Both the position numbers and the translations under genes were made by a program. Shown piece by piece: positions 4,547 to 5,385 of a DNA stretch of 5,616 nucleotides. The stretch covers positions 1 to 5,616 of IMG/VR virus record IMGVR_UViG_2778261085_000003, one strand, 5' to 3'. Positions within the stretch are counted from its first letter, which is position 1. Every line of letters begins with the position of its first letter. This DNA is from a virus (lineage: Duplodnaviria > Heunggongvirae > Uroviricota > Caudoviricetes). The notes beneath the pieces were generated by a model. It searched no databases. It was not told the origin of the DNA and worked only from the letters and a program-made list of their open reading frames with translations.

Positions 4547-4969
4547 ATGGCAAAAGTATTTACACAGGAAGAGCGGGAAAAAATTAAAGGGCAGGTTGTT
4601 GAACTTGTGCGCCTGAACGGGCGTGAGACGTTACGACAACTGGAAACTAAAACAGGGACAACAAGATATCTGATAAGTACTCTCGCCAAAGAGCTGGTTG
4701 CCAGTGGTGACGTATACAACTCTGGCTACGGGTTATTCCCGTCAGAACAGGCTCGTAAGGACTGGCAAAACGCCCGCAAAAAACTCTCGAGGGCAAAGGT
4801 GAAGAAACCATCTGTGGTTGATCCGGATCTTATCTTTTTATTACCAGACGGGGAAATCCGTCGCTACGACAGGCGTCAGAACATAATTTGTCGCGAATGC
4901 CGGAAGAGCGAAGTTATGCAGCGTGTACTGGCGTTTTATTTGGGAAATTTTCAGGAGATATTATCGTGA
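4547..4969 (+). CDS. Hypothetical prophage protein, 140 aa, with helix-turn-helix-like N-terminus
   Basis: ORF in track; strong ribosome-binding site (GGGAGGG about 5 nt upstream); segment RETLRQLETKTGTTRYLISTLAKELVASG looks like a helix-turn-helix; basic C-terminal half. Function not recognised. Confidence 0.8.
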   Translation: MAKVFTQEEREKIKGQVVELVRLNGRETLRQLETKTGTTRYLISTLAKELVASGDVYNSGYGLFPSEQARKDWQNARKKLSRAKVKKPSVVDPDLIFLLPDGEIRRYDRRQNIICRECRKSEVMQRVLAFYLGNFQEILS

Positions 4970-5100
4970 GTAAAATTAACCACCAGGCACTGCGTGAGTA
5001 TGCAGAAAAGGCAACTAAAGGAAGCTACATCGTAGGGCATACATCCGTCAATCAGCATGGGAATATAACAGGTGTTTTTGTTTGTCAAAAAAGGAATTGA
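4966..5100 (+). CDS. Small ORF, 44 aa, possible N-terminal fragment of an Ea22-like protein
   Basis: In-frame GTG at 4966 overlaps the upstream stop (GTGA) and follows AGGAG at 4953-4957 by about 8 nt; the track's ATG at 4888 lies inside the upstream gene and is less likely. Product would begin with the GTG codon read as Met, then SKINHQALREYAEKATKGSYIVGHTSVNQHGNITGVFVCQKRN. The ALRE..AEKAT motif resembles N-termini of ead/Ea22-like prophage proteins (recollection, unverified). Confidence 0.4.
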   Translation: MSKINHQALREYAEKATKGSYIVGHTSVNQHGNITGVFVCQKRN

Positions 5101-5112
5101 GAAGCTGATGGC

Positions 5113-5385
5113 GTGATTGCCGAATGTCATGTTAACTGCCTGACTGAAACAGGTGCTCAGGCTTATGCAAATGCTGAATTTATTGCCACTTTTAATCCAG
5201 AGATTGCAATGGTTCTGCTGGATGAGCGAGAGGTCAAAAACAGGCTCATGGTTGAGCTGACAATGTGGATTAAGCGACTGTCCCACTCCTTAAGATACGC
5301 CAATGGTTTAAGCGGTTTGCCTGAACAGGCGATGGCGTATCTGAAACAGAACGGACTGGTAAGCGTGAAGGATGTTTTACGATGA
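5113..5385 (+). CDS. Ea22-like family protein, C-terminal portion, 90 aa
   Basis: ORF in track with GTG start and no convincing ribosome-binding site; same reading frame as 4966..5100, separated from it only by the TGA at 5098-5100. The AECHVNCLTETGAQAYANAEFIATFNPEIAMVLLDERE motif resembles ead/Ea22-like proteins (recollection, unverified). Confidence 0.55.
   Translation: MIAECHVNCLTETGAQAYANAEFIATFNPEIAMVLLDEREVKNRLMVELTMWIKRLSHSLRYANGLSGLPEQAMAYLKQNGLVSVKDVLR

Follow-up and report, generated by a model that had tools for sequence, protein, structure and literature searches.

The window, by which we mean the whole 5,616-nt stretch of DNA analysed here, is 100% identical to contig NNXD01000096.1 of the Escherichia coli assembly GCA_002486915.1 (locus L008). 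It carries part of a Rac-like E. coli prophage, in which an ead/Ea22-like gene follows DnaT-like, P-like (replication), DUF1627 and DUF977 genes. The Ea22-like region has the following features.

4547..4969, plus strand: upstream DUF977 gene (PHROG 142), the stop codon of which overlaps the Ea22-like start.
4953..4957, plus strand: Shine-Dalgarno sequence AGGAG, 8 nt before GTG 4966, serving the original start of the gene.
4966..5385, plus strand: the whole disrupted ead/Ea22-like gene, very probably a pseudogene, orthologous to intact 139-aa genes such as WP_077793294.1.
4966..5100, plus strand: N-terminal fragment of 44 codons and a stop, covering Pfam profile positions 1-42; its GTG overlaps the DUF977 stop (GTGA).
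5098..5100, plus strand: premature TGA; a single G-to-T transversion at 5098 turned GGA (Gly45) into this stop.
5101..5385, plus strand: rest of the reading frame, codons 46-139 and the stop at 5383-5385, covering Pfam profile positions 46-97.

The joined Ea22-like frame starts at GTG 4966, runs for 44 codons to the TGA at 5098-5100 and continues in frame to the TGA at 5383-5385. The coordinates and the translation bear out the preliminary description, according to which the open reading frames 4966-5100 and 5113-5385 share a frame (frame 1) and are separated by this one stop codon. Four sense codons (EADG) lie between the TGA and the GTG at 5113, and 5113-5385 is listed by gene callers as a 90-aa 'EA22-like protein' (P0009). 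The GTG at 4966-4968 overlaps the TGA stop (4967-4969) of the DUF977 gene. In E. coli N18-04097 and phage Rac MN652886, approximately 505-540 bp (1570-2084 of locus L001 and 1580-2122 of locus L002), carrying a DUF7167 gene and a 58-aa hypothetical gene, lie between the DUF977 and Ea22-like genes; the two genes overlap directly in the window because this segment is absent there (~4966-4980). A minus-strand open reading frame of 111 aa (4951-5286) was taken as spurious, being antisense to the conserved Ea22-like gene.

Several observations concern the neighbouring sequence. The longest open reading frames of the DnaT-like gene (2199-3314, plus strand) and the lambda-P-like gene (3103-3768, plus strand) overlap by ~210 nt, and gene callers place the start of the P-like gene differently in contigs that are nearly identical, with predicted products of 221, 153 or 140 aa. 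The DUF977 protein (4547-4969, plus strand) matched PHROG 142, 'Ren-like exclusion protein' (E = 4.6e-46), and its equivalent in MN652886 has been named lygF. Downstream, a 27-codon open reading frame at 5382-5465 (plus strand; MTRPEAFTAVGIAMAVALGVFSIFRLG) begins with an ATG that overlaps the Ea22-like stop (ATGA). Its hydrophobic product resembles a single membrane-spanning segment. This reading frame recurs in L014 and L018 with ~7 amino-acid differences, is mostly left uncalled by gene callers and matched no Pfam or PHROG family. Positions 5479-5616, which open with TGAACCGCCCCGGG, are the terminal ~138 bp of the IS3-family element IS629 and extend into the 3' end of its transposase gene on the minus strand, with 98% identity to annotated IS629 copies. 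Relatives without IS629 have a terminator-like hairpin followed by a 129-aa minus-strand gene at this place; the insertion explains the contig break.

The two GTG codons differ in their translation signals. At GTG 4966, pairing of AGGAG with the anti-Shine-Dalgarno sequence reaches -7.4 kcal/mol, which places it in the top 4% of window positions. No Shine-Dalgarno sequence precedes GTG 5113, whose pairing energy of -3.3 kcal/mol is background (34th percentile of window positions), and the earlier observation that this codon lacks a ribosome-binding site thus held. In the alignment it is the internal codon for Val50, which all intact homologs share without exception; the codon therefore did not arise as a start.

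When the stop was replaced by any residue, the joined 139-residue translation gave a single continuous match to Pfam PF13935 (Ead_Ea22), covering profile positions 1-96, with 70.1 bits against a gathering cut-off of 27. The stop therefore sits within one conserved domain. The N-terminal piece alone matched profile positions 1-42 with 34 bits and the C-terminal piece positions 46-97 with 28 bits, in agreement with the earlier impression that the two reading frames hold the N- and C-terminal-type motifs of a single Ea22-like protein. The TGA, at about profile position 43-45, interrupts the frame that encodes the domain; the locus is thus a disrupted family member (a pseudogene) and presumably not a functional one. 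The overall build is an ead/Ea22-like N-terminal domain followed by a short helical tail of ~50 residues. A search of 5.8 billion proteins gave 1151 matches, of which the best 120 were examined. Both sides of the stop were spanned by 117 of these 120, and PF13935 was present in all of them except P0013. No NCBIfam model matched, PHROGs gave matches only to families without known function, and a sequence search of the PDB, which includes the C-terminal domain of lambda Ea22, returned nothing at E ≤ 1. Two variants of the family build were seen: in P0003 (185 aa) a DUF551 (PF04448) tail is fused to the short Ea22-like protein, and in P0005 (183 aa) residues 19-49 are duplicated internally in tandem (SYIVGHTSVNQHGNLTGVFVCQKWKGEPGG).

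For the intact ortholog P0002, AlphaFold2 gave a model of low confidence (mean pLDDT 54, pTM 0.30) from a 27-sequence alignment. The secondary-structure layout of this model, used with caution, comprises a helix at residues 6-16, strands at 21-28, 34-44 and 50-58, and then helices. Residue 45 may accordingly lie in a turn between two beta strands, so that each fragment would, tentatively, hold part of one sheet.

The residue at the stop position is glycine in 118 of the 120 best homologs, the remaining two being the 90-aa downstream fragments themselves, and Gly45 is invariant in the 27-sequence alignment (A3). At the DNA level, a degenerate pattern matched IMG/VR phage contigs 121 times, each time with GGA at this position. 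The same codon was found by DNA alignment in the intact 315-aa O157 Ea22-like gene, in E. coli N18-04097 and in phage Rac MN652886. The closest relative that does not carry the TGA, L018/L019, is 93.6% identical in the flanks and reads AAT-GGA-GAA (QKRN-G-EADGVIA); because it has GGA in an identical local context, the TGA is the derived state. The preliminary description had anticipated homologs spanning both parts with a sense codon such as TGG or CGA at the stop. Spanning homologs with a sense codon do exist, but the codon is one for glycine: GGA in the related prophages (Rac MN652886, N18-04097 and L018/L019) and GGG in strain RM11911. When the degenerate pattern was applied to genome_contigs, the sole match was L140 (NZ_JPLE01000321.1, 484 bp), from a Xanthomonas pisi assembly. 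This contig matches the pattern exactly and carries E. coli phage Ea22-like N-terminal sequence; it is probably a contamination of that assembly.

A full-length ortholog was found in 13 complete E. coli genomes. RM11911 has an intact 139-codon gene with GGG at codon 45, the product of which (WP_077793294.1) is annotated as an ead/Ea22-like family protein, and four more complete genomes gave the same full-length 420-nt match at 94.8% identity. An intact 139-codon open reading frame is also present in N18-04097 and in the Logan contig L142. Lesions other than the TGA also occur in this ortholog. Seven of the 13 complete genomes gave 418-nt matches with a 2-bp deletion at about codon 52; E21845/O/A, the one of these seven that was inspected, carries the PGAP annotation 'frameshifted' (pseudogene), and phage Rac MN652886 has the same deletion; this phage comes from strain 442/2, the chromosome of which is one of the seven. 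L018/L019 have a TAG at codon 128. L141 has a frameshift through two additional A residues in the A-run of codons 42-43, which is less certain as it was seen in a single Logan contig. Thus, at least three or four separate lesions have arisen independently in this ortholog.

The TGA allele was present in at least 28 contigs and occurred as two haplotypes. At least 24 contigs share the TGA and an identical 90-aa product, with flanks 99.55-100% identical to the window. Four further contigs carry the TGA with a C-terminal half resembling L018 and have flanks 96.6-98.8% identical to the window; this haplotype looks like a recombinant with an L018-like C-terminus rather than a sign of long retention. 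The identical TGA recurs in independent NCBI, ENA and Logan assemblies and is therefore not a sequencing error. The allele is real, shallow and moderately spread. All sightings of it came from protein-indexed assemblies: among 5,426 complete E. coli genomes none was more than ~88% identical over most of the stretch, and no match, in either the TGA or the GGA form, came from genome_contigs, metagenome_contigs and viral_contigs when they were scanned with 42 nt of sequence surrounding the stop in which the mutated base was left as N. Downstream of the TGA, 94 codons follow without a further interruption, and none of the 28 carrier contigs has lost this frame, which is also what would be expected of a recent mutation, given carrier flanks that are 96.6-100% identical to the window.

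Compared with L018, the window has 12 nonsynonymous and three synonymous changes, giving a dN/dS of ~1.2 on a small count of 15 changes; compared with the intact N18-04097 ortholog, dN/dS is 0.26. Finding 12 nonsynonymous changes among 15 has a probability of 0.55 under neutrality and of 0.008 if omega were 0.25. The nearly invariant Trp43 has been replaced by Arg in the window's clade. These results, on small counts, point to relaxed constraint or neutral drift across this clade.

The existence of two independent genes, or a sequencing or assembly error behind the stop, is very improbable. The 90-aa piece has been called as a protein in its own right (P0009), which would favour separate genes, but neither fragment covers the whole domain, and homologs outside this allele show no boundary here, the stop position being bridged by 117 of the best 120. 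Two genes divided at the same boundary, the arrangement that the preliminary description had set against its single-gene reading, were seen only in near-identical alleles that share the mutation by descent; homologs spanning both parts do exist, in the form of intact 139-aa orthologs annotated as single genes. An error is contradicted by the identical TGA in independent NCBI, ENA and Logan assemblies. Another explanation is termination at UGA 5098-5100 followed by reinitiation at GUG 5113, which would yield a 44-aa N-terminal and a 90-aa C-terminal fragment, either separate or reassembling. Short-range reinitiation after termination occurs in bacteria, an in-frame GTG lies just 12 nt from the stop, and the downstream frame has remained intact in 28 of 28 carrier contigs. 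This GTG, however, is the ancestral Val50 codon without a Shine-Dalgarno sequence, an out-of-frame ATG at 5108 (ATG-GCG-TGA) is nearer to the stop, and the cut falls within one conserved domain. In addition, the window's clade appears to evolve neutrally, and other lineages are broken elsewhere in the gene. We therefore consider reinitiation unlikely. A split that is tolerated or even useful, in which the C-terminal fragment made from GUG 5113 retains or gains activity alone or with the N-terminal fragment, would, if true, explain the spread to at least 28 contigs and two haplotypes as well as the open downstream frame; we give it similarly little credence.

Programmed recoding of the UGA, as selenocysteine or through readthrough by tRNA-Trp, would restore a full-length protein. 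UGA is the leakiest stop codon of E. coli, and the frame is open on either side of it. The ancestral residue, however, is an invariant Gly and not Cys or selenocysteine, and readthrough would place Trp at this invariant position. No SECIS-like hairpin was found: the 81 nt around and after the UGA have a minimum free energy of -18.2 kcal/mol, compared with a mean of -17.4 kcal/mol for shuffled sequences (z = -0.30), and Rfam matched nothing in the Ea22-like region, its sole, sub-threshold chance match lying elsewhere in the window (617-683). A SECIS element is therefore unlikely. The locus thus shows neither of the hallmarks of UGA recoding, a 3' SECIS element or a UGA that is conserved or aligned with Cys, its homologs having Gly. 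The stop is furthermore confined to one shallow clade, and the pattern scans of the three public collections gave neither the TGA allele nor its GGA counterpart. Recoding is extremely improbable. The preliminary description had left the choice between a nonsense mutation and readthrough or reinitiation; the latter two gained no positive support from the fold, the start signals, the restricted occurrence of the stop or the apparently neutral evolution, while the former is favoured by spanning homologs with a Gly codon at the TGA.

The window gene was also compared with known Ea22-like systems. Orthology to WP_077793294.1 of RM11911, P0002 and the N18-04097 open reading frame extends over the full length, with 81% amino-acid identity and 100% coverage to P0002 and a DNA identity of ~87.6% to the short 139-aa ortholog. 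The window shares with these short orthologs the N-terminal PF13935 domain, the tail ELTMWIKRLS...LP..AM..L..NGL.S..DVLR and a prophage neighbourhood downstream of DUF1627 and DUF977; it differs from them in having TGA instead of GGA or GGG and Arg instead of the nearly invariant Trp43. The ~50-residue tail recurs in a subfamily comprising P0002, P0004, P0006 and P0008. Phage Rac MN652886, in which the gene is annotated as HP3 and 'HP4, coding region disrupted by frameshift', and the seven genomes with the same deletion carry the same ortholog with a lesion a few codons away, but theirs is an independent frameshift whereas that of the window is a nonsense codon. The long Ea22-like proteins of Stx/O157 lambdoid phages (e.g. 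WP_001289942.1, 315 aa) are alike over the first ~88 residues, with 83-84% DNA identity over the first ~265 nt; both forms contain PF13935, and the intact O157 genes share the GTGA-overlapping start. In the long forms, coiled-coil and C-terminal domains follow, and their genes occupy the exo-xis region next to a TraR/DksA-like gene, whereas the window gene has a different tail of ~50 residues and lies after replication genes. Lambda Ea22 consists of a short N-terminal domain, a coiled coil and a dimeric C-terminal domain (PMC10834534), and has been described as tetrameric (PMC10834534, PMC7093339). In lambda and Stx phages, Ea22 has been reported to promote lysogeny at the expense of lytic growth (PMC7093339). 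The window gene has neither the exo-xis location nor the three-domain build of the lambda type.

From these analyses, we conclude that the region is very probably one gene, a GGA-to-TGA nonsense pseudogene that represents one of several independent inactivations of its ortholog. It has the features typical of nonsense pseudogenes: one substitution converted a sense codon into the stop, the ortholog survives intact elsewhere, and selection appears relaxed, although on small counts. The ancestor was a single 139-codon ead/Ea22-like gene of a Rac-like E. coli prophage, in which one G-to-T transversion at 5098 changed the codon of the invariant Gly45 from GGA to TGA. Translation from GTG 4966, with its AGGAG Shine-Dalgarno sequence and coupled to the DUF977 stop, would then end after 44 residues. 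The downstream 90-codon open reading frame would be a by-product of the mutation, its GTG being the normal internal Val50 codon without a ribosome-binding site. Function has presumably been lost, and meaningful expression of the fragments is not expected. The pseudogene would since have drifted neutrally.

The locus is an ordinary decaying prophage gene, a disrupted member of its family and not a new kind of element. The consequence is mainly one of annotation: entries for the 90-aa 'EA22-like protein' (P0009) are fragments and should be flagged as belonging to a nonsense-disrupted pseudogene. For the biology of the prophage, the inactivation of the short Ea22-like gene in four or more separate ways suggests that it is dispensable to the host once the prophage is resident.
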